64,000 nucleotides of DNA from Escherichia coli (GTDB lineage: Bacteria > Pseudomonadota > Gammaproteobacteria > Enterobacterales > Enterobacteriaceae). The DNA lies in NCBI RefSeq assembly GCF_030013205.1, contig NZ_CP122648.1; one strand, written 5' to 3'. Below are positions 46,691 through 57,092 of this stretch, one piece after another. Positions within the stretch are counted from its first letter, which is position 1, and each line of letters begins with the position of its first letter. A program made the position numbers and the translations under genes. The notes beneath the pieces are model-generated. The model saw nothing but the letters and a program-made list of their open reading frames with translations. It had not been told where the DNA came from and ran no database searches.

Positions 46691-46715
46691 ATTAACTACA
46701 CCATTAACTACACCG
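46691..46715. repeat. island-end repeat attaactacaccattaactacaccg (tandem 12-mers)
   Basis: Near-identical 25-mer at 57068..57092; both followed by CGAACAA-type motifs. Confidence 0.6.
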
Positions 46716-47303
46716 CTTCACGAACAATATCGAACAACCGCGAACAAAGATCAACACGCTTTAATCATTATCATTTTCCGGCTATCCGTCATGAAGCTGG
46801 TGGATGATCTGCGTGGTGATTTCCACCATTCAGAGCAGGGGCGGTCATCATGACCATGCCATAACAAAAACCCCATATTCGTGGTTTTTCTGTGTCGGGG
46901 CTATTCTGCTGTTGCCGTGCTGGTGGATATTCTCCGGTATGCGGCTCCCCATATCGGCATCAGGCCCACCAGCGTGAAGCGTTTTTCATTTTTCGCGGGT
47001 ATAAAAAATCGATGGGGCGGGCAGTCCTGAAGACGTCAGGGTACGGAGATTTGACCCGCCCCTCCCTGTGCATGAGCACAATAAGTAACCGAAGGCGGAA
47101 TTCCGCCCTCGGTACTTACATATGAGAAACGATATTTCTTCCACCGATACCCTTTATTTGGGTATTGCGAGTAAGCCCCAAAATCTGGGTGTTACTCTTA
47201 CTACCCAAACTACGGGTAGTTTCCGTAGTTTCATGGTCGAGTTGCAAATCTGCAACTCACCCACCAGCCAACGCAATTTTGCGTTATCGGGAATATCAGC
47301 AAG

Positions 47304-47591
47304 TTACCGCCGCAGTCGTTCCGGCTTCTTCCACTGGTAAGTATTTTTCGCGCTCTCCCTCCGTTGTTGAGAACGGCGACGGTATGCCAGCAACTCAAGG
47401 ACTCTGGTTCGTATGTTGCGCATATCCACGCCGTTAAGCTCAATACCATCACGGCGCATCACCTCAGCAACAACACGCGCGTAATTTTCAGCGGTGACTG
47501 TATCCGGCTGCGCGGCCTGTTCGTCAGCCAACTGGCTGATTCCACCAGCACAGCGGATTAATCGCAGTATTTCAGATTCGGTCATTATCAT
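47304..47591 (-). CDS. hypothetical protein downstream of terS-like gene
   Basis: 95-aa ORF, ATG overlaps the upstream stop. Confidence 0.5.
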   Translation of the reverse strand: MIMTESEILRLIRCAGGISQLADEQAAQPDTVTAENYARVVAEVMRRDGIELNGVDMRNIRTRVLELLAYRRRSQQRRESAKNTYQWKKPERLRR

Positions 47592-48073
47592 GCCTGTTTT
47601 GCGACCTCATTCACTACGTCATTTTTTACCATCCGGCTGATAATCTGATTACACAAATCGTCAATAATTGACTGCACTCTGTTTACTGCCATCGGTTTAA
47701 GCCCGGCATCACGTGCCAGAATATTGGGGAGTTTTGCCAGTTCCTCGCTTACGATTTCCCCCCATATAGCCATCTCTTTTCGCACATCATCGGCGGGTAT
47801 GAGTTGCGCCGTTTCCTGTTCGAACTTGAGGCGTTCACGTTCGGACTGATACCAGGCCTTACGGTCTTGTGGCTCCATTTCTTCCAGTGATGCCGGAACG
47901 GGAAGATCAAGAAAACAGGTCAGAATGTCAGTCACCCGATAGAGTTTCAGCTTGTCATGCCCTCCGGCTGGCTGGATGTTTTTCAGCCTTGCCGCCGCAG
48001 TCTGACGACATATTCCCGCTATCGCCGCCAGTTGATTAATGTTCAGCATCAGATTTTTCAGTTCTCGATCCAT
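47588..48073 (-). CDS. Nu1-like small terminase subunit / packaging-redirection (Rpp-like) protein
   Basis: ATG at 48073 (MDRELKNLMLNINQLAAIAGICRQTAAARL...), N-terminal wHTH plus coiled coil resembling lambda Nu1; the track start at 48160 is TTG. Confidence 0.55.
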   Translation of the reverse strand: MDRELKNLMLNINQLAAIAGICRQTAAARLKNIQPAGGHDKLKLYRVTDILTCFLDLPVPASLEEMEPQDRKAWYQSERERLKFEQETAQLIPADDVRKEMAIWGEIVSEELAKLPNILARDAGLKPMAVNRVQSIIDDLCNQIISRMVKNDVVNEVAKQA

Positions 48074-48226
48074 ACCCGCTCCAGAATGTTTTAAACATGC
48101 ATCTTGCGAACAACTTTCAGAAGAGGTCAAAAAATGCGCTATATGTTGAGCATAAAACAAGCAAAATTAACATGCCAAAAATAAAAATACTTAAAATTCA
48201 ATACAATATGAAGATGATGATGACGA

Positions 48227-48322
48227 ATGAAAATGCAAAAACTAGCCTTTTTCCGCGCCGCTCCCGCCCCGTGGCAGACCACTCCACCGGGAGGACCCGT
48301 AAAAAAGGCGGCTGTCGCCGCC
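48227..48322. repeat. conserved intergenic element A (about 72 nt shared with element B, then a GC hairpin)
   Basis: About 85 percent identical to 50761..50832; hairpin ggcggctgtcgccgcc at 48307..48322. Confidence 0.6.
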
Positions 48323-48329
48323 CTTGTTG

Positions 48330-50243
48330 TCATGCTCCACTCGATTTCAGTAATCCGCGATAATCGAGGGCCGCGACACCTGCATCTATGCGCACTTTCC
48401 AGGCGACACCATCAACAGTAAAGCCCACCTGCTCCTCAAGATATGGCGTATCCATACCATCAAGATAAGCGACTTCTATTGTGTCCATCCCCTTAGCTGC
48501 GGCTACATACCATTCCTTGCTATTGGCCTTATCAAGACGTGGCTCAACAATTACTTCTGCCATATCTTTCACCACGTTAATGATGCCGGGGTTCTGATTG
48601 ATAGTGCTCTCATCACCAACCGGAAAGACTGATGACGATGACAGAATGGCGCGACGCGCGGCAGATTCCAGCGCGGCAGGGACCAGAACAAAAGCAGGGG
48701 TAATATTCAGTGAGTCGCCGTTAGCATCCTCCTGGAGGCGCATCAGCTTACGGGCTTCATCAAGCCCCACCATGTCCATATCCTTCGCAATAAGATTTTT
48801 ATGATCGGCATGGAATAACGCTTTACCATCCGTAAATTTGCCGTTGCTGGTTAACAGAAGATAAACCAGATTACCTACTGTTCTGGCGGCCGCACGCCCC
48901 ATCGCCATGGGGATTGTAGTTAACTGGGTCAGGTCATCGTTGATAATGGCCTGACGGGTAACAGAAAAAATATTACCGTATGTGGCCAGCGCAATAGGTA
49001 CACCTTTATCGCTGGTGGTGATGTATTTATATTCCGCACCTTCCGGTACTTTATCCAGCTTTGAAAAACCATTCAGACCAACGCGCTTTGCTTCATGAAA
49101 GTTTGAAAGCGATCCGGTACGCGTCCATTTCTGGAACGTTTCGCCGCTGTCCTGCCAGCCTTTCAGCACTGATTTTTCAGCACCACCAGCCAGAATATGA
49201 GAAAAATCGCTGCTGCTGTGTGTGAAAGCTGCATTAACGACCTGCGAGCGATTTAAAAAACTGCCAACACTGATACCACGATCAGTTAGTGATGCCTGGG
49301 CCATTTCAAAAAGGCTCATCATCGCGTAAGGATTTCCCCGCTCTGGGCGTTCATACCCAAGACGAGAATAAAGCCCCTGACGAATTGCATCGCCTGTTAT
49401 GTTCCCGTTACCGGCATAAATATGAGTCGGGATATTTTTATTGGATGGCGTGGACTCGCGCCCCAGCTCGTTCAACAACTTTTCACGGGCCATCTCCGGT
49501 GTACATGATGCATCCTCCAGGCACGCCATTTTGATCCCGTCGTAACGACTGCCGAACAGGCTAAACACTTCACTTATTCCGTTGATGCGCTTCTGTTCAT
49601 TACCAGCAATATTGGCTGCTCCCTGTGGCGGGGTAATCATTCCTTTAATGGTTTCAGGCATGTGTGAAAAATCTCCTGTGCGTTTCGATTCAATTCGCGC
49701 CATTGCTGTGACAGATGGCAACAATTCATCAGCAAAACCGTGCTTAAGGCATTCTTTCCCGTCCATCCAGGTTTCATCTTCCAGCATGGCGGTAATTTCC
49801 TGTGCTGATTTGCCCGTTTTTCTGGCATAAGCAGGGACTAACACGGTTTCCACCTTATCCAGCAAATCAGCATAATCACGCATATCACCAGCATTTCCGC
49901 CAGAGATACCCCACGGCTTATGTATCATCATCATGGCGTTTTCCGGCATCACAACACGATCGCCAGCCATTGCGACAACCGAAGCCATTGAAGCCGCAAC
50001 ACCATCGATATAAACCGTAATTTCTGCCGGATGATTCCGTAACAGGTTATAGATGGCGATGCCTTCAAACACGTCACCACCTGGCGAATGGATCCGCAGG
50101 TCGATATGTGAGACATCGCCCAGGGCTTTCAGGTCTTCCGCAAACTGCTTCGCGGTAATACCGAAGCCGCCAATTTCTTCATAGATGGATATTTCTGCCG
50201 CTCCGCGAACACCCAGCGCCTTAATGGTGTACCAGTGATTCAT
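48330..50243 (-). CDS. prohead protease (ClpP/S49-like) fused to HK97-fold major capsid protein
   Basis: Single 637-aa ORF; N-terminal serine-protease-like region (HSPGGDVFEGIAIYN...), C-terminal roughly 400 aa capsid-like. Confidence 0.8.
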   Translation of the reverse strand: MNHWYTIKALGVRGAAEISIYEEIGGFGITAKQFAEDLKALGDVSHIDLRIHSPGGDVFEGIAIYNLLRNHPAEITVYIDGVAASMASVVAMAGDRVVMPENAMMMIHKPWGISGGNAGDMRDYADLLDKVETVLVPAYARKTGKSAQEITAMLEDETWMDGKECLKHGFADELLPSVTAMARIESKRTGDFSHMPETIKGMITPPQGAANIAGNEQKRINGISEVFSLFGSRYDGIKMACLEDASCTPEMAREKLLNELGRESTPSNKNIPTHIYAGNGNITGDAIRQGLYSRLGYERPERGNPYAMMSLFEMAQASLTDRGISVGSFLNRSQVVNAAFTHSSSDFSHILAGGAEKSVLKGWQDSGETFQKWTRTGSLSNFHEAKRVGLNGFSKLDKVPEGAEYKYITTSDKGVPIALATYGNIFSVTRQAIINDDLTQLTTIPMAMGRAAARTVGNLVYLLLTSNGKFTDGKALFHADHKNLIAKDMDMVGLDEARKLMRLQEDANGDSLNITPAFVLVPAALESAARRAILSSSSVFPVGDESTINQNPGIINVVKDMAEVIVEPRLDKANSKEWYVAAAKGMDTIEVAYLDGMDTPYLEEQVGFTVDGVAWKVRIDAGVAALDYRGLLKSSGA

Positions 50244-50449
50244 TGCTCCCCCCCAGATGCAAAACCATTCTTATCAAGCCACGCGTTAACCGCGTGTCTG
50301 ACAATCTGCGCCGCACCTGGTAATGGTTGGTCAGGATGATGATTTATGTGGTCGATCCTGTACTGCTTAAGGCGCATAACGGTCTGCGCATCCAGATGAA
50401 CGGAACCACCTTTTACCTCGCCTGTGTTCAGGTCGTTAATACAATTCAC
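50240..50449 (-). CDS. hypothetical small protein (non-ATG start)
   Basis: 69-aa ORF with GTG start and AGAGGA RBS; stop overlaps the capsid start. Confidence 0.4.
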   Translation of the reverse strand: MNCINDLNTGEVKGGSVHLDAQTVMRLKQYRIDHINHHPDQPLPGAAQIVRHAVNAWLDKNGFASGGEQ

Positions 50450-50760
50450 AGTAACTTCCTCTTACTGACTAAACTGCGCGCATTATTGATCGATAAAAGT
50501 GGTAGATAAACATATTTCTATCATAAAAATAGATTAATCAGATTCAGACACAAAAAAGCCGGAGAGAATCCGGCATAAATATCCCGCCATCTGAACACGT
50601 TTTGCACAGGCAACTCCATCTGGCAGGTGAAAAACAAATTTATTTATATATTTCAATTAATTGCAAACTGGTCTAATGACAGGGAGAAAAAAATATTGTA
50701 CAGGTGAAAACAGAAATAACTTTTAATTATCAATAAATTACTACACATGCTGCCGCCGCC

Positions 50761-50858
50761 ATGAAAATGCAAAAACCAGCCTTTTTCCGCGACGCTCCCG
50801 CCCCGTGGCAGGTCACTACACCGGGAGGACCCATAAAAAAGCCGGATTGCTCCGGCTT
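50761..50858. repeat. conserved intergenic element B (copy of element A core, different terminal hairpin)
   Basis: atgaaaatgcaaaaaccagcctttttccgcg...ccgggaggaccc then gccggattgctccggc hairpin with T-run on the minus strand. Confidence 0.6.
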
Positions 50859-50872
50859 CTGTTACTCGTTGC

Positions 50873-51295
50873 TTAAAACGGTATGTTATCCCCGTACGGA
50901 TCATCATTTCCCGCCTGTTGTTTTGCTCTGCTCAGTGCATCAGTAGCCTGCCCCTGTTGGCCTTTTTTGCCGCCCGGTCGCGCCGTTCTCGCACTGATTA
51001 CGCTGTCTGCGATAACCTGCCAGCCCTGCCGCGTCTCCCCGTTCTGTCCGGTCCACTGGCTCACCTGCATGTTACCCGCCACGCTCAGGAGTTCACCCTT
51101 GCGGTGCTTTGCCAGTGCTTCGGCCTGTCTGCCAAACGCCAGGACGGATAACCACATCGTCGCCGTTCCGTCATCTGCCTGGCTGCACGGAAGTGGGACC
51201 GCCATACTCGCCATCGTCATTTGTGTACCCTTGCTGGTGGTCTTTAACTGCGGGTCAGCCACCAGCCGCCCGTAAGCCGCTATCTGTGCTGTCAT
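50873..51295 (-). CDS. single-stranded DNA-binding protein (SSB-like)
   Basis: 140 aa, OB-fold-like N-terminus and acidic C-terminal tail DDPYGDNIPF like the SSB DDDIPF tail. Confidence 0.65.
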   Translation of the reverse strand: MTAQIAAYGRLVADPQLKTTSKGTQMTMASMAVPLPCSQADDGTATMWLSVLAFGRQAEALAKHRKGELLSVAGNMQVSQWTGQNGETRQGWQVIADSVISARTARPGGKKGQQGQATDALSRAKQQAGNDDPYGDNIPF

Positions 51296-51537
51296 GCTGT
51301 CTGCTCTCCGGTTTTAACGTTGATGGTTGTCACCTGTTCCGCTTCGGCAATCTCCCGTTCTGTCAGCGTGGCAAAGTTTGCAGCTGCCGTTGTCATGAAT
51401 GAGCTAATCAGTTCGGGATGTGCTTTCGCATATCCTTCCCCGGCGTTGCGGTCGATGATTTTTATCGACACCCTTAACCAGTGTTCCGTCAAATCAAGGG
51501 CGTGCGATTGTGATTTTTTTGTGTGCTTCGCTGTCAT
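51292..51537 (-). CDS. hypothetical protein
   Basis: 81-aa ORF overlapping the SSB start. Confidence 0.45.
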   Translation of the reverse strand: MTAKHTKKSQSHALDLTEHWLRVSIKIIDRNAGEGYAKAHPELISSFMTTAAANFATLTEREIAEAEQVTTINVKTGEQTA

Positions 51538-51583
51538 AGGCTTTATCTCACAGCAGTAAATTAAAATTTTTGCGTTTTAACCC

Positions 51584-51812
51584 TTCACCTGTTCACCTTT
51601 TGATATTTTATCTTTTAATTCATAATGTTAAGGGGTGAACAGTTTCACAAAAACTATTCACCAACTGTTCACCACTGTTCACCCTTGAAGCTCAATAAAC
51701 AATCAAAAAGGTGAACAGTGAATAGTTTGGTGAACAGTTCATAAATAACTGTTCACCCTATAACATACTGATACAAAAGATATTTATGACAGGGTGAACA
51801 GTGGTGAACAGT
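51584..51812. repeat. iteron array: at least 9 copies of TGTTCACC/GGTGAACA in both orientations (P4 ori/crr-like)
   Basis: Octamers counted at 51590, 51634, 51666, 51676, 51710, 51729, 51750, 51793, 51803, with TATTCACC variants; immediately downstream of the alpha-like gene. Confidence 0.7.
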
Positions 51813-51824
51813 TATTCCATAAGT

Positions 51825-53642
51825 TTAATTTTTGCTATCGTCATTAGTGACCGATACACATGATGGCATCCAGTCTTCTGATTCCTCCGTCAGTGTCACG
51901 TTTGAACGCAAACCGTGCTTCGTTTTCCGTTTCATATACTCCCTGCCATATTCCGCCATTGCCCCCGGCATATCTTTACCGAAGCGCGTCAGTGTTACAG
52001 GTTTACCAAACCCATGTGCCCTCATATAAGCCAGATAGGCATGATAGAGATACCTGCGTGGGCTGAATGGCACAATTTCAGCATTACCCACTAACAGGCC
52101 ATCACACATTACCGACGCCATGAGATAGCCGCAGAAGTCCACCAGCGAATCCCCCTCTCGCTTTATCGCCAGTGCTTCTTCAGATTTCTGCTGCTCATAT
52201 AACAGGCGTCTGGCTTCGTCCTGGTCAGCAAACCGTGTAAGCAGATGGCGAATCACTACCGCCAGCTCACCTTCTATTTTTTCCGCCAGCATTGGATCGC
52301 GTTCGTTCTCCGGTACAACTTCCGAAAAATTGAATATCACCCGACGACGTGAGATCCCCCCGCTGCGGTCACTGAATGACATGGCGTTATTGTTAACCGC
52401 CAGCACTACTGCCGGAATACGCGTTGAGTAGGGGGCTTTGTGTTTCGGGTCAATTGCCACCTTGTCACCGCCTGTAATGGCCTTAATTCCTGCCCCATCA
52501 CCAGCGTAGCGGGTCATATCCGGCATGATAATCAGCGAAAAGCCAACCACTAACGCGCGTTCCCTTGCATCTTCCAGCGCCTTCATGCTTGCCGATACTG
52601 TGTTGGCCTTACCCGCCAGCATGGTGCAAATCTCCGCCATCACGCTTTTACCACTTCCCCCTGGACCTGTTACCTCAATGAATAACTGCCAGTCGTACCG
52701 GTTCGCCAGCACCATGAATAATGCAGCCAGTACGCGATCCGCCTTGCGGTCATTCTCAGCCACCGAACGGCGTAACCACTTCCAGAAATTCGGCGCATGT
52801 GTTGCCAGCGTTTCCCCCTCTGCTGGTGGGCTGAAAGGTAATTCACTGGCAATTAACAACCAGTCGTTTTTGTTATGCTCCCGAAAATTACCTGTTCTGG
52901 TATCAAATACCCCGTTACTGAATCCAATCAGGTTACGGGCTGTATTCCCCATAACAGGCAAACTTAACTTCATGGTATCGACCGCCGATTTAATGGCGTT
53001 CTGCGAATAGCTGATCTCCGCATCAATGAAAATCTGTGCCATAGCTCGCTGTAATTCTTTATCCTGTACTGGCTCCCATACAACGCCGTTGTAATGGTGA
53101 ACAGTGTCAGAGTCAGCATGAATCGCCAGTTCACCGCCATAATGTGCCAGGAGAACTTCGCCGCGTTGACTTGCTCCCATCTGGTTAAGCGCCAGTGATG
53201 AAGCGTTATCGTCTTTTACCCGCTCTTTTTTCTTTACAGGCAGTTCAACTACCTTTTTCTTTTCCGCCTGCTCTGCCCGTTCACGTTCCAGATATTCGCG
53301 CCAGTTCTCCCGTTTCTGGCTGTGCATTCCTTCAGGGTAATAATCAGCATCCCTGACACCTGCCGCTGCCAGTTTCTGCCCGATGGTATTAACAAGCCCC
53401 GGACGCAATAACCCCGCCTGGTAGAGACGCACGCGATAGCGTCCGTCCGGTACGATTTGCAGGTTGTCCAGTTCGGCAAGTTGTTGCTCTCCAAGCCAGA
53501 CAGGTGGCACGTTATCGCCAGCCAGTCGCCCGTCCTGTTCCTGCCACTGCTTCGCATGTGCCCACGCATCACTACCCGCAAAAATGATGACTTCCGTCAT
53601 TTTGTCACGCGGCTGGTGTTTTAAATTTGGCGCTTTTTTCAT
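51825..53642 (-). CDS. P4 alpha-like replication protein (D5_N / SF3 helicase, primase-helicase family)
   Basis: Walker A GPGGSGKS; ATG at 53642 with GGAGAG RBS; the track start at 53657 is GTG. Confidence 0.8.
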   Translation of the reverse strand: MKKAPNLKHQPRDKMTEVIIFAGSDAWAHAKQWQEQDGRLAGDNVPPVWLGEQQLAELDNLQIVPDGRYRVRLYQAGLLRPGLVNTIGQKLAAAGVRDADYYPEGMHSQKRENWREYLERERAEQAEKKKVVELPVKKKERVKDDNASSLALNQMGASQRGEVLLAHYGGELAIHADSDTVHHYNGVVWEPVQDKELQRAMAQIFIDAEISYSQNAIKSAVDTMKLSLPVMGNTARNLIGFSNGVFDTRTGNFREHNKNDWLLIASELPFSPPAEGETLATHAPNFWKWLRRSVAENDRKADRVLAALFMVLANRYDWQLFIEVTGPGGSGKSVMAEICTMLAGKANTVSASMKALEDARERALVVGFSLIIMPDMTRYAGDGAGIKAITGGDKVAIDPKHKAPYSTRIPAVVLAVNNNAMSFSDRSGGISRRRVIFNFSEVVPENERDPMLAEKIEGELAVVIRHLLTRFADQDEARRLLYEQQKSEEALAIKREGDSLVDFCGYLMASVMCDGLLVGNAEIVPFSPRRYLYHAYLAYMRAHGFGKPVTLTRFGKDMPGAMAEYGREYMKRKTKHGLRSNVTLTEESEDWMPSCVSVTNDDSKN

Positions 53643-53938
53643 TTCGGCTCTCTCCACGCGGCAATCATGTTTTTCAGTTCCTGCAGTTTTTTATCCACAT
53701 CCACACGTGACACATGGTTATTTCTGGAAGTCGGGATTTCCCGCCGGAATCTGCTAATAAAGATCTCCACGTTCAGCGAACTATGAAATGAATAGCCATC
53801 ACGAATAAAATACACACGGTCAAACATCAGTTCTTTTACCGTTACTCTGTTACCGTTCTTATCCAGATAAATAGCGCCGGGGATAATTTTGGGGTGTGCA
53901 TAACCGCTGGCAGTCAAGCCAGATAAATATGTTCTCAT
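53639..53938 (-). CDS. hypothetical protein
   Basis: 99-aa ORF, overlapping start/stop with the alpha-like gene. Confidence 0.45.
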   Translation of the reverse strand: MRTYLSGLTASGYAHPKIIPGAIYLDKNGNRVTVKELMFDRVYFIRDGYSFHSSLNVEIFISRFRREIPTSRNNHVSRVDVDKKLQELKNMIAAWREPK

Positions 53939-53944
53939 GATTAT

Positions 53945-54265
53945 TTATCCCCGATTTGAATCAGTATTCGCTTTCTTTATGGCATTTAATGCATCTGTGG
54001 CATTTTCAATGGTGCACCGTAACGAAATATCAAACTGCCCAAGCATTGCCAGTAACAAACCGATATTACCCATATCAATGCGCATGGCCTTTTCGTCATA
54101 GTCCTCATTTTCTGACGCATGCCACATCAGGCTACCAATTGACGCAACAGCCATTGATATATTGTCAGTAGCCCCATCAGCAGCGGAATAAACCTTTTTA
54201 GCAATATCATGCTCACAGTTAAAATGCGGATTAATCAGGTACTGGTAATTTGACATATCAGGCAT
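53945..54265 (-). CDS. hypothetical protein
   Basis: 106-aa ORF. Confidence 0.45.
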   Translation of the reverse strand: MPDMSNYQYLINPHFNCEHDIAKKVYSAADGATDNISMAVASIGSLMWHASENEDYDEKAMRIDMGNIGLLLAMLGQFDISLRCTIENATDALNAIKKANTDSNRG

Positions 54266-54461
54266 GGCACACCCCCTGACGAATACGGGCGGCGAATACC
54301 ATCACGTAGCCAGCCGGGGATTGCTGGCGTGCTTCCTGTTCACTGGTGGCCTCAATGGTAATCACGCGCGGTTGTGCCGTGCTCAGGGCGATAAAACGCC
54401 AGATGTATTTATTCAGGTTGTACGAGTCCCGCCCTTGCGGGTGTCTGGTATAATTTCTCAT
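54258..54461 (-). CDS. hypothetical small protein (real part of a spurious 302-aa track ORF)
   Basis: Internal ATG at 54461 with GAGG RBS (MRNYTRHPQGRDSYNLNKYIW...). Confidence 0.3.
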   Translation of the reverse strand: MRNYTRHPQGRDSYNLNKYIWRFIALSTAQPRVITIEATSEQEARQQSPAGYVMVFAARIRQGVCHA

Positions 54462-54540
54462 AGCTGCCTCGATACTGTTGCTATCGTTGGTGGTTAGACG
54501 CCCTGCATGTGTGCCACCACTGCGGGGCGTTGTTGCTTGG

Positions 54541-54630
54541 TGCATCGCACCATTCGTTTTTAACCTATCAGCAAGTGAATCGCACTTCAAGCCTTTCTCT
54601 GAAATTTTTTTTGTGTATACTGAATCGCAC
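54541..54630. promoter_or_regulatory. three direct repeats TG(C/A)ATCGCAC plus a TATACT -10-like box upstream of the RHH gene
   Basis: Copies at 54541, 54576 and 54621; TATACT at 54616..54621. Confidence 0.4.
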
Positions 54631-54651
54631 CAACTTAGAGAGGATTCAGTA

Positions 54652-54831
54652 ATGGCAACAGGTTCAACAAATAATAAGTCGCAACAGTTAAATGCCAGAT
54701 TCCCGCATGATGTTGTTGCAGACTTAGAAAAAAATTTAGATGAAGGTGAAAGCAAGGCGCAATTTATAGTTACTGCCGTTAAAGGCGAGATCAAACGCCG
54801 CCAGCGCCGCAAGGCCAAAGAGCAGGAGTAA
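54652..54831 (+). CDS. ribbon-helix-helix (Arc/CopG-like) DNA-binding protein
   Basis: 59 aa; N-terminal beta-strand-like LNARFPHDVVADL; GAGAGG RBS. Confidence 0.55.
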   Translation: MATGSTNNKSQQLNARFPHDVVADLEKNLDEGESKAQFIVTAVKGEIKRRQRRKAKEQE

Positions 54832-54873
54832 CCATCACCAGCGCCGTGGTGTGAGTAACTACGGCGCATTGCT

Positions 54874-55062
54874 ATGCAGGACAACACAATGACCGATAAA
54901 GAATTGACCAAAACATTATCACCGGCACGGAAAAGACGGCGCAGAAAGATAGAGCATGAATCAGAAAGATTCGCGCCATGTGCTTTTGCTCTTGAGAAAT
55001 TCCTTAAAGAGCACAGGAAAAAGCTCTCGTTGCAAACCTTGGAACGAACCAAATCTGACTGA
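54874..55062 (+). CDS. hypothetical small basic protein
   Basis: 62-aa ORF followed by hairpin ggcgaccgcccccggtcgcc with T-run. Confidence 0.3.
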   Translation: MQDNTMTDKELTKTLSPARKRRRRKIEHESERFAPCAFALEKFLKEHRKKLSLQTLERTKSD

Positions 55063-55176
55063 TCACATTGCCCACCAGCCGCAAATGTGGCATTGTTGGT
55101 GATGCGTTCAAGTTTAGTGTGTATCCATTGGCGACCGCCCCCGGTCGCCTTTGTTTTATATGTCATATGCTCCCCT

Positions 55177-55386
55177 TTACGCTGCCTTGCCTGAATTAAT
55201 GCGATCCCGGCTTTTAACCCATTCCATAACCTCGGACAGCAGCCAACCTACAGAACGACCGCCCAGATTACGGCGTGACGGGAAATTCCCTTTTTTCTCC
55301 AGTTCATAGCGTGTAGTGCGACACACTCCAGTTAACTTACGACATTCATCCTCACGGATTACGCGATCTTCATTTATTTCACGCAT
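55177..55386 (-). CDS. alpA: AlpA-family transcriptional regulator
   Basis: 69 aa, MREINEDRVIREDECRKLTGVCRTTRYELEKKGNFP... typical AlpA/Xis HTH. Confidence 0.8.
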   Translation of the reverse strand: MREINEDRVIREDECRKLTGVCRTTRYELEKKGNFPSRRNLGGRSVGWLLSEVMEWVKSRDRINSGKAA

Positions 55387-55805
55387 ACAAAAACCTACAT
55401 AAAAAATTACGTATATAAACTTTTCTCTTAGCTGTAGATATATGAGATCGGATATTACTTAGATTCTTTTTTCACCTCTTAAATTAAAAACACAACCTTG
55501 CTAAAGGCTTTGTTCGCTAAGGTTCGTAGAAGCTCGTTAGTGTTTAAAATCGTGTCACGAGTTTTTAAGCGATGCAACAAAAAATGTCGTTACTTGGCAT
55601 TACGCTTGAATTATCTCATTAAAAACAAATAGATAAACCATCAAGTGTTGGAACAATCAAGAAACAGAGAATAAAAGTTCAGAAGAAGACATTCCAATTT
55701 TTTGATGGTTGACATATATAAAGCGAAGATATTTGCAGATATTTTCCGATATTCTACGATTTATTCACGGCTGTAATCTCTTAAAGAAAAAACAGCCGTA
55801 ATTTG

Positions 55806-57053
55806 TCAAGAATTTTGGGGGTAAATTCGCGGGGTCATAACAACGATTTTTTCATCATTGTTCTGGAGAAGCTCGAGACGGTCTACCCATAGATTAAGAG
55901 CATCACGTTTTGCATCAAGATAACGGGAGTGGTTATAGACTCGTTGCATCCCCGGCATCTGGTGGGCGGTAAGCTGCTCGACAATATGCGGATCCACGCC
56001 TAAATCGTTCAGCATGGTTGTAAATGTGTGCCGGATGTCATGCAACGACCAGGGGGCTTGATTAATGCGTCTGTGTGCCGTTCTTCCGTACTCTGCTACG
56101 GATGATTGCCCTTTCAGTTCTCCAAGCAATAAGCCCGTGTGCCTGTTCTTCTCCACCAGCTTCATGACAAACGGCAAGATCGCTTCCGGTATTGGCCTGA
56201 ATATTGCTACCTTCGTTTTGCTGTGTTCTTTCGGCACAGTCCAGAGCATTTCTTTAAAATCCCATTCCTGAACCTCGGAGCGTCTTAGCTCAGTGGTACG
56301 GCATCCAAAGACAATCAGAAGGCGAATTAAGGCGCTGTAGTACGGCGGGAAAATTTTTTCATCCAGTGCGCGGAGTAGCTCGCCAAGCTCCTTGTTTGTT
56401 AGCACTCGCTCGCTTATTTCTGCTTTTTTTCCCACATCACCTACGACCATATCATCAAGAACGTTACTGACGGCGTAGCGACGTTTACGGCAGTACTTAA
56501 GCGCCTGCTTGCATACCTGCAACAAAAAGCCGGCTGATACCGGATTACGCTTAGCAAGCTGGTCAAAACAGGCCAGCCAGTGGCGTAACTCGCATTTATC
56601 CAGCGGCATAGCACCAATCTGGCTGATTATGTGCTTATTGATCCGGCTTTTCAGTGATTCGTGGTCAGTGCGCTTTTCCTTCGCGTATGACTCAAGCCAG
56701 TAAGTGATCGCGTCCTTAACCGTTACAGGTGCTAACGCTTCCTGCACTGTGTGATTAAGCTCATGGCGTGGATTTTTCCCCTCCGCCAGCCAGGCGCGAC
56801 ACTGTGCCGCTTTTTCTCTGGCTGCTTTCAGGCTCAGATCGGGATAGTTGCCCAGTCTCAGGCGTTCCGGTGATACCTGCCTGCCAGTTCCGGCCCTGTA
56901 AGTGAAATACCAGGTTAACAGGCCATTGGTTGAATGCCTTACGCTAAGGTTGCCACCATCATTAAAAAAGGTGTTTTTTGTGGTTGGTGATCCGCTTAAT
57001 TTTCGTAAAAGAGTGTCGCTAAGTCTATGAATTGCCCTGCTCATGTTTCGCAT
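55806..57053 (-). CDS. int: tyrosine integrase (P4-type)
   Basis: 415 aa with catalytic-region motifs (HDIRHTFTT, YNHSRY); at the island end next to cspD. Confidence 0.9.
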   Translation of the reverse strand: MRNMSRAIHRLSDTLLRKLSGSPTTKNTFFNDGGNLSVRHSTNGLLTWYFTYRAGTGRQVSPERLRLGNYPDLSLKAAREKAAQCRAWLAEGKNPRHELNHTVQEALAPVTVKDAITYWLESYAKEKRTDHESLKSRINKHIISQIGAMPLDKCELRHWLACFDQLAKRNPVSAGFLLQVCKQALKYCRKRRYAVSNVLDDMVVGDVGKKAEISERVLTNKELGELLRALDEKIFPPYYSALIRLLIVFGCRTTELRRSEVQEWDFKEMLWTVPKEHSKTKVAIFRPIPEAILPFVMKLVEKNRHTGLLLGELKGQSSVAEYGRTAHRRINQAPWSLHDIRHTFTTMLNDLGVDPHIVEQLTAHQMPGMQRVYNHSRYLDAKRDALNLWVDRLELLQNNDEKIVVMTPRIYPQNS

Positions 57054-57067
57054 TTCCGGTCATCAAA

Positions 57068-57092
57068 ATTAACTACACCATTGACTACACCG
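57068..57092. repeat. island-end repeat attaactacaccattgactacaccg
   Basis: 24 of 25 identical to 46691..46715; 15 bp beyond the integrase start. Confidence 0.6.

Follow-up and report, generated by a model that had tools for sequence, protein, structure and literature searches.

Three small genes and a conserved long frame at the front of the replication operon of a predicted EcCICFT073-type phage-inducible chromosomal island in Escherichia coli

The stretch of Escherichia coli DNA analysed here (64,000 nucleotides of contig NZ_CP122648.1, assembly GCF_030013205.1; hereafter the window) carries three small genes on the minus strand, numbered 1 to 3 in the direction of transcription, between a divergent control region and a P4-alpha-like helicase gene, referred to below as the replicase gene. 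We consider it probable, though well short of certain, that these genes form the front of an operon running from alpA to the replicase gene of a ~10.4-kb phage-inducible chromosomal island (PICI), and that they supply a Kil/Icd-type product, the cargo of a variable slot and a partner protein of the RgdR family, respectively. We infer every activity proposed below from family memberships, gene order, the geometry of translational coupling, selection and the conservation of an open frame. The block is a real and ordinary part of a common satellite, and taken alone it adds little, present as it is in roughly 7% of the complete E. coli genomes and in the model island EcCICFT073. The one unexpected result is a conserved long frame that runs antisense to the YlcI/YnfO gene of the control region.

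The three open reading frames (ORFs) lie where the initial annotation had placed them, on the minus strand at 54258–54461 (gene 1, 67 aa), 53945–54265 (gene 2, 106 aa) and 53639–53938 (gene 3, 99 aa), and its view that they head the replication operon stands. The stop of gene 1 overlaps the start of gene 2 by 8 nt (ATGCCTGA, read from the sequence), genes 2 and 3 are spaced by 6 nt, and the stop of gene 3 overlaps the replicase ATG at 53642 by 4 nt, as ATGA at 53642–53639. Purine-rich runs resembling Shine-Dalgarno (SD) sequences precede all of the starts, including that of the replicase (GAGG, GGGGG, GGGGA and GGAGAGAG). The Prokaryotic Genome Annotation Pipeline (PGAP) calls the identical three coding sequences in a 99.9% identical E. 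coli locus, and at least 80% of the block was found in 374 of 5426 complete E. coli genomes (~7%).

The frames are also conserved across related islands, a check that the initial annotation had proposed. In a sample of 80 IMG/VR loci fetched with gene 1, the distinct close alleles are all intact (n = 44 for gene 1, 26 for gene 2 and 28 for gene 3), and the summed ratio of nonsynonymous to synonymous polymorphism (pN/pS) in the annotated frames is 0.35, 0.38 and 0.37, respectively, compared with 0.57–1.6 in the off frames. Purifying selection acts on all three genes. Full-length relatives of the block proteins reach identities as low as 25–42%.

The genes had been described as three unknowns without a recognisable motif. 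On profile search this description fails for gene 1, which matches NF033153 at 70.1 bits, and for gene 3, which matches PF13973 at 61.1 bits; gene 1 is Icd-like and gene 3 belongs to the DUF4222 family, one member of which, RgdR, has published phenotypes, while gene 2 is indeed uncharacterised. Other searches added little. PADLOC returned no meaningful match for the block genes, and when the three proteins were compared by tblastn with 50,697 phage records, genes 2 and 3 gave nothing and gene 1 gave one weak match, in a cf-PICI-like record. A PDB sequence search with gene 1, gene 3 and the DUF1441 protein encoded elsewhere in the island gave no match.

Gene 3 encodes a DUF4222 protein whose gene is translationally coupled to that of the replicase. 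The PF13973 match (cut-off 27 bits) covers residues 16–67, and the AlphaFold2 (AF2) model, with a predicted local distance difference test score (pLDDT) of 74, consists of an SH3/KOW-like barrel and a C-terminal helix; a fold search with gene 3 returned only generic SH3, KOW and Tudor barrels, at E values of at least 0.04. A DUF4222 gene lies directly upstream of the replicase gene in every related locus that has a replicase, and the two genes share the ATGA at the start of the replicase in 56 of 58 distinct allele combinations, spanning three replicase types. The window replicase begins with a domain of ~140 aa (residues 1–140; 53223–53642, minus strand), which has no Pfam match and is shared by the otherwise unrelated alpha-like, DUF927 and RepA/AAA_25 replicases, with 95% identity to the DUF927 type and 69% identity to the RepA type.

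Two relatives of gene 3 have been studied. RgdR (ECs1581, a 99-aa DUF4222 protein of OI-51/CP-933C in E. coli O157:H7) and C1493 of EcCICFT073 activate LEE1, of the enterocyte effacement locus (LEE), together with type III secretion, and they repress motility. The binding of RgdR to DNA is non-specific, and the authors of the RgdR study proposed a co-factor role. Like gene 3, these are genes for a 99-aa DUF4222 protein directly upstream of a replicase gene in the same kind of island, and they keep K35, a residue that is important in RgdR and invariant in the DUF4222 alignment. They differ from gene 3 in sequence, the identity between gene 3 and RGD-carrying alleles being about 35–38%, and at residues 20–22, where gene 3 has PGA in place of the RGD of O157-type and CFT073-type alleles. 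The RGD allele (residues 20–22) from a locus classed as O157-type (L006) aligns with gene 3 from end to end. RgdR also differs in that its published phenotypes are those of cross-talk in enterohaemorrhagic E. coli (EHEC).

RgdR, whose sole recognised role is in the regulation of EHEC virulence, belongs to the conserved partner gene of PICI replicases of three types, which points to a native role beside the replicase. Gene 3 would be made stoichiometrically with the replicase, and most likely it would work with the shared N-terminal domain of the replicases, or have DNA or proteins of the nucleoid as its target, when replication of the island begins. It is a real possibility, though on balance we doubt it, that gene 3 is instead a transcription co-factor or a modulator of nucleoid proteins in the manner of RgdR, and that its place next to the replicase gene reflects linkage. 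The effects of RgdR and C1493 on LEE1, type III secretion and motility, the non-specific DNA binding and the co-factor proposal would all suit such a protein, and a rise in LEE expression with a fall in motility resembles the loss of H-NS silencing. However, most carriers of these islands have no LEE for such cross-talk to act upon, the window protein lacks the RGD, and the ATGA coupling to replicases that share an N-terminal domain is nearly invariant.

Gene 1 encodes a 67-aa protein nested in a longer ORF and, by profile and alignment, is a member of the Icd-like family, together with Icd of phage P1 and the C terminus of P4 Kil/Eta. Its match to NF033153 (cut-off 25 bits) spans profile positions 1–48, and the same profile scored 73.9 bits in P4 and 52.6 bits with P1 Icd, which served as controls. 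The match in P4 falls in the C-terminal third of the ORF labelled cI in the P4 record. The last 65 codons of that ORF begin at an ATG behind AGGAGG, and we take them to be kil, which encodes 65 aa. The three proteins align over a F..A....E.EAR.....AR core. The initial annotation had named clear homology to P4 genes of established function as something that would refute its view, and gene 1, in the family of the P4 eta/kil C terminus, shows such homology. Both gene 1 and gene 3 are present in every one of the ~90 related loci examined, and the GAGG and ATG of gene 1 are kept in all 44 upstream variants.

The resemblance to P4 extends to the arrangement of the genes. In both elements the alpA/ORF88 homologue is followed at once by a long ORF with an Icd-like domain as its C terminus, an ORF of ~65 aa with its own SD lies inside that long ORF, and both stand at the head of an operon whose end is an alpha-type replicase gene. 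P4 Kil is described as a truncated, cell-killing form of Eta, and translation of eta is proposed to prevent termination, letting late transcripts through (PMC10111431). In contrast to the window, the P4 leader contains a CI (C4-type) RNA and a seqA/isrK element, both within eta, and P4 eta has a Phage_ASH domain that is absent from the window extension. The long frame of the window, unlike that of P4, is antisense to two plus-strand genes, the YlcI/YnfO gene and a second small ORF, hyp62, and the identity between gene 1 and P4 Kil is ~25%. The immI operon of P1 (c4, icd, ant) offers a second precedent. P1 Icd, 30% identical to gene 1, is likewise the product of a small leading ORF whose stop overlaps the next start, by 4 nt at icd/ant1 and by 8 nt in the window, and the P1 record annotates it as a cell-division inhibitor required for expression of the overlapping ant. 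P1 differs in its control by C4 antisense RNA and in having an antirepressor gene, rather than replication genes, as the next gene. The leader gene that is kil/eta in P4 and icd in P1 has a homologue in PICIs; the founding paper on PICIs gave only Int, AlpA and Pri-Rep as common with P4 (PMC6092414).

By analogy with family members that arrest division or kill when expressed, gene 1 would be the Kil/Icd-type product of the island. An alternative is that the Icd-like gene and the slot gene or genes constitute primarily an abortive-infection or programmed-cell-death module triggered by non-helper phage proteins, with replication secondary; we think this unlikely, if far from negligible. Suppressor insertions that relieved phage-triggered cell death in ECOR61 fell in an Icd-like gene and in the two small genes that follow it at once, the Icd-like protein was named as the likely effector, and P4 kil was proposed to be the lethal gene under P22 Abc1 expression (Silas et al., bioRxiv 10.1101/2023.04.06.535777). 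The 8-nt overlap in ECOR61 has the same geometry as that in the window. The trigger there was a phage accessory gene, reconstitution of cell death took six linked genes including primase, and the reconstituted effect was weak (bioRxiv 10.1101/2023.04.06.535777). The ECOR61 slot genes encode 61 and 63 aa and may be unrelated to gene 2. Moreover, the universal position of the Icd-like gene at the head of the operon, with the regulatory-leader precedents of P4 and P1, fits a function in the island life cycle at least as well.

Gene 2 occupies the variable slot between genes 1 and 3 and encodes an acidic protein (15 Asp/Glu versus 8 Lys/Arg by our own count), predicted by AF2 (pLDDT 79) to form a hairpin of two long helices. 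No match was found in Pfam, NCBIfam or PADLOC, and the sole family match is to phrog_15327 (1.4e-71), for which no function is given. Among 1.84 billion representatives, gene 2 has one relative at 66% identity and four at 27–42%; two of the four distant relatives were looked up, and both lie between an Icd-like gene and a replicase gene in comparable islands. Gene 2 belongs to a tiny orphan family. A fold search of the PDB and BFVD gave only generic helical hairpins (EsxB, UvsY), all at E values of at least 0.5. Three large repeat proteins with tetratricopeptide and immunoglobulin-like repeats also matched gene 2 and were set aside as repeat-amplified noise around a YDEK...NLGL motif. In place of the single 106-aa gene of the window, the slot holds genes unrelated to it in other islands, three of ~77 aa in O157-type islands and four of ~75 aa in EcCICFT073. 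Gene 2 is regarded as one of several interchangeable cargoes of this slot and, going by its model, would most likely act by binding another protein.

The initial annotation had taken the three proteins together for satellite cargo of unknown kind, such as derepressors, helper-interference proteins or anti-defence proteins, and the 302-aa ORF that contains gene 1 for noise. Gene 2, uncharacterised, acidic and helical, would be at home among such proteins, as would a slot whose content varies between islands, and the null result from PADLOC is neutral on a role in defence. As an account of the whole block this is distinctly unlikely, given that genes 1 and 3 belong to named families and occur in all of the related loci examined and that the long ORF is conserved. 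The suggestion of derepression factors fares no better, none of the three proteins matching P4 epsilon (PF25738) or Cnr (DUF5375). In P4, epsilon and cnr are also small genes between the immunity leader and alpha, and Cnr (ORF106), with 106 aa like gene 2, is encoded directly upstream of alpha as gene 3 is of the replicase. However, the two profiles match the P4 proteins and no window protein, BLASTP found no match, and homology to epsilon and Cnr was rejected.

The 302-aa ORF itself (54258–55166, minus strand) shares the frame of gene 1, is the analogue of P4 eta and lies antisense to the YlcI/YnfO gene and hyp62. It starts at an ATG at 55166, 10 nt past the alpA stop, behind an SD of its own (AGGGGAG). 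In the 715-nt interval between alpA and gene 1, the frame of gene 1 contains no stop and the other two sense frames contain 11 and 17; in the related intervals the other sense frames contain 8–28. Among 39 distinct alpA-to-gene-1 intervals from related loci, an open frame spans the interval in 35, in the gene 1 frame in 28 and in another frame in 7, and in these seven variants the ORF, of 299–401 codons, ends 20 nt upstream of the gene 1 ATG. Two of the remaining four intervals are broken or frameshifted without an inserted gene (e.g., L079 and L088) and two have inserted genes (e.g., L019 and L059). The frame is also open in four other loci, including an island whose gene 2 is only 42% identical to that of the window.

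Pairwise pN/pS was unusable on the extension, as there were too few close relatives of equal length, and avoidance of stop codons was used instead. Over the 35 open intervals, no stop of the long frame falls opposite YlcI or hyp62; the remainder of the intervals holds 18, which we take to be the ends of the frames. The other sense frames have 434–469, 100–101 and 62–82 stops, the first of these ranges being the count outside the antisense genes, over 6461 codons. The open frame is not a by-product of antisense codon structure, because the avoidance of stops is just as strict where no antisense gene lies opposite. The ORF had been dismissed as a spurious extension of gene 1, a judgement that the 35 open intervals and the dedicated SD and ATG after alpA contradict. 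The fusion protein cannot be essential, because the frame is broken or frameshifted in 4 of the 39 intervals and unfused to gene 1 in 7; a join with the Icd-like domain is common but can be dispensed with. We conclude that translation through the interval is what is selected. That the frame is an untranslated by-product of antisense codon usage, or of close kinship among the loci, is very improbable: its wobble positions coincide with those of the plus-strand genes with which it shares DNA (54652–54831 and 54874–55062), by hand from coordinates the most permissive antisense phase, and its domain-less extension has no PGAP annotation, but the frame stays free of stops outside the antisense genes, persists across YlcI alleles of 37–65% identity (differing by 35–63%), in islands without YlcI (L020, L027) and in the distant island with the 42%-identical gene 2, and opens, immediately past alpA, with a strong SD and an ATG.

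The extension has no Pfam domain, PF10554 (Phage_ASH) matching the P4 ORF and not the 302-aa ORF, and its sequence looks like antisense filler. In EcCICFT073 (L092, 2767–3853) the N-terminal part of the long ORF has an ISESGFYKLI motif which, by eye, resembles the end of a Bro-N/antirepressor domain. This motif suggests that the long ORFs descend from Bro-network proteins.

Under the account we favour, the operon would be built for nearly uninterrupted translation, from alpA across 10 nt to the long ORF, through the 8-nt overlap to gene 2, across 6 nt to gene 3 and through the 4-nt overlap to the replicase. Gene 1 would be made in two forms, as is P4 eta/kil. A promoter in the control region between YlcI and gene 1 would give the transcripts for the 67-aa form, which would be translated from the SD and ATG of gene 1 itself, and transcripts initiated at alpA would give the 302-aa form. 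The short form is taken to be real because its SD and ATG are invariant and because the long ORF stops 20 nt upstream in seven intervals. Translation of the long frame may serve mainly to keep ribosomes on the ~700-nt stretch antisense to YlcI. Covered by ribosomes, the induced transcript would escape premature termination and reach the replication genes.

A broader version of this mechanism, which we put forward as an attractive idea somewhat more apt to fail than to hold, is that ~360 nt are coding on both strands in EcCICFT073-type PICIs, that translation of a long frame coupled to alpA passes antisense over a functional YlcI/YnfO repressor gene pair and on into the Icd-like domain, that a translation-dependent convergent switch replaces the CI-RNA immunity of P4, and that ribosome transit gates the toxin and replication genes. 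The frame opposite YlcI/YnfO offers a testable model of how AlpA induction reaches the replication genes and of what silences the island; the existence of a PICI master repressor has been called still unclear (PMC6092414).

Several observations weigh against the account as a whole. The related loci are mosaic relatives and not independent samples. Gene 1 is only 25–30% identical to Kil and Icd, gene 2 is without an informative homologue or fold match, and gene 3 carries PGA where the O157-type and CFT073-type alleles have RGD. The correlation between gene 3 alleles and alleles of the replicase N-terminal domain (r = 0.62) may be plain linkage. In addition to its interruption or lack of fusion in some intervals, the long ORF has an N-terminal region of 235 aa that is domain-less and rich in Cys, Ser, Leu and Arg. 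Finally, the promoter assignment is based on weak hexamers, and promoter prediction gave none at the assigned position.

The whole island (46691–57092, unstranded) is bounded by a 25-nt att-like repeat, ATTAACTACACCATT(A/G)ACTACACCG, with copies at 46691–46715 and 57068–57092 in the clpS-cspD intergenic region; PGAP annotates clpS and yljB/cspD in the flanks. Its genes are arranged in the order integrase, AlpA, the plus-strand YlcI/YnfO gene, the second small plus-strand ORF and genes 1–3, followed by the replicase, an 81-aa ORF, SSB, a ClpP-protease/major-capsid fusion, a DUF1441 protein and a 95-aa ORF. The alpA gene (55177–55386, minus strand) matches PF05930 at 59.5 bits, and its product is 43% identical to P4 ORF88/Vis, in the family of PICI activators and excisionases. 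PICI genes are activated by AlpA, which the helper induces (PMC6092414).

The element is a phage satellite, as the initial annotation held, but not one of the P4 type. In a BLASTP comparison of nine products from the operon region with the full set of P4 proteins, alpha and ORF88 were the only ones matched, the integrase, capsid fusion and DUF1441 protein lying outside the query set, and no homologues of sid, delta, psu, epsilon or cnr were found among the tested products by BLASTP and with the PF25738 and DUF5375 profiles. There is also no CI/C4 RNA, as described below. The hallmarks of PICIs, by comparison, are present, namely int, alpA, a control (Bro) zone, pri-rep with an ori, late genes, a size of ~10–15 kb and flanking att repeats; a four-zone scheme of PICIs has been described (PMC10111431). 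From these sequence features the element appears to be an EcCICFT073-type PICI and not a P4-type satellite, because its gene order is the same as that of EcCICFT073, the island for which helper induction and mobilisation have been shown (PMC6092414).

The order shared with EcCICFT073 runs from int and alpA through the antisense hypothetical gene and YlcI/YnfO, the Icd-like gene, the small genes and the DUF4222 gene to pri and SSB, and the long frame is open there too, over 367 codons. Both islands have an integrase with a chromosomal target site and AlpA as activator. They differ in the slot, filled in EcCICFT073 by its four small genes and not by gene 2, in the replicase allele, and in the late region, where EcCICFT073 has a separate capsid gene and decoration protein and the window has the ClpP-capsid fusion and the DUF1441 protein. 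The insertion sites also differ, EcCICFT073 lying between roxA and phoQ and the window island between clpS and cspD.

The divergent control region between gene 1 and the YlcI/YnfO gene measures 190 bp. The YlcI/YnfO-family gene (54652–54831, plus strand; 59 aa) matches NF041551 at 63.3 bits and is annotated by PGAP; its product looks ribbon-helix-helix-like by eye and is a candidate for the island repressor. Downstream of it lies hyp62 (54874–55062, plus strand; phrog_21027), which PGAP calls at 54889–55062 with 57 aa. Three exact direct repeats of GTGCGATNCA in the control region (54541–54550, 54576–54585 and 54621–54630, minus strand) are candidate operators, with only one further exact copy in the 64 kb; their placement relative to the putative promoters is a tentative reading of the sequence. 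The intergenic region carries repeats or palindromes that differ from one allele class of YlcI to the next, a pattern that fits YlcI acting as an allele-specific DNA-binding repressor and that linkage could also explain.

A conserved hairpin (54498–54530, minus strand) lies in the leader 38–70 nt upstream of the gene 1 ATG, and compensatory changes are found in both of its stems (RNAalifold, 14 variants). A second small stem (54470–54486, minus strand) abuts the SD of gene 1, and an invariant CTAACCACCAACGAT sits between the two. The leader hairpin matches no Rfam family and is not a C4, isrK or c4-a1b1 RNA. A C4/CI-type RNA was rejected on finding no C4, isrK or c4-a1b1 match at E values up to 10 in either 53500–55500 or 54440–54660. 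The P4 positive control for these searches scored 74.9, 60.8 and 44.1 bits and placed the CI RNA and seqA element just upstream of the Icd-like ORF of P4.

A strong intrinsic terminator (55130–55159, plus strand) ends the YlcI-hyp62 transcript convergently with alpA and falls within codons 7–13 of the long ORF. Read on the other strand, the terminator encodes KATGGGRQW, a conserved stretch close to where the long ORF starts.

The replicase (51825–53642, minus strand; 605 aa) contains D5_N, DUF5906 and Pox_D5 domains. It is 50.7% identical to P4 alpha over alpha residues 320–771 only, the helicase and ori-binding part. The first ~320 residues of P4 alpha, which we take to be the primase part, have no counterpart in the window protein, which has the unrelated domain of ~140 aa instead. 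Just downstream of the replicase gene (51634–51822, unstranded) are five copies of the ori-like iteron GGTGAACA(GT), and an extra copy lies within the gene at 53093–53106. We take the type-1 repeat of the P4 ori to be TGTTCACC, of which GGTGAACA is the reverse complement.

Some further features of the island and its relatives were observed. The integration site is not a tRNA gene; to its left, at a distance of 3 kb, are serW and two RtT elements. A 94-nt direct repeat with 88% identity (48227–48320 and 50761–50854) stands on either side of the ClpP-protease/major-capsid fusion gene, and each copy opens a small ORF-like stretch (ATGAAAATGCAAAAAC...). In one related locus (L005, 4943–5192), a second, partial Icd-like pseudogene is located upstream of YlcI, beside an ORF6N gene, an arrangement that looks like the insertion of a YlcI-Icd-gene 2-DUF4222 block within a Bro-Icd gene that was already present.

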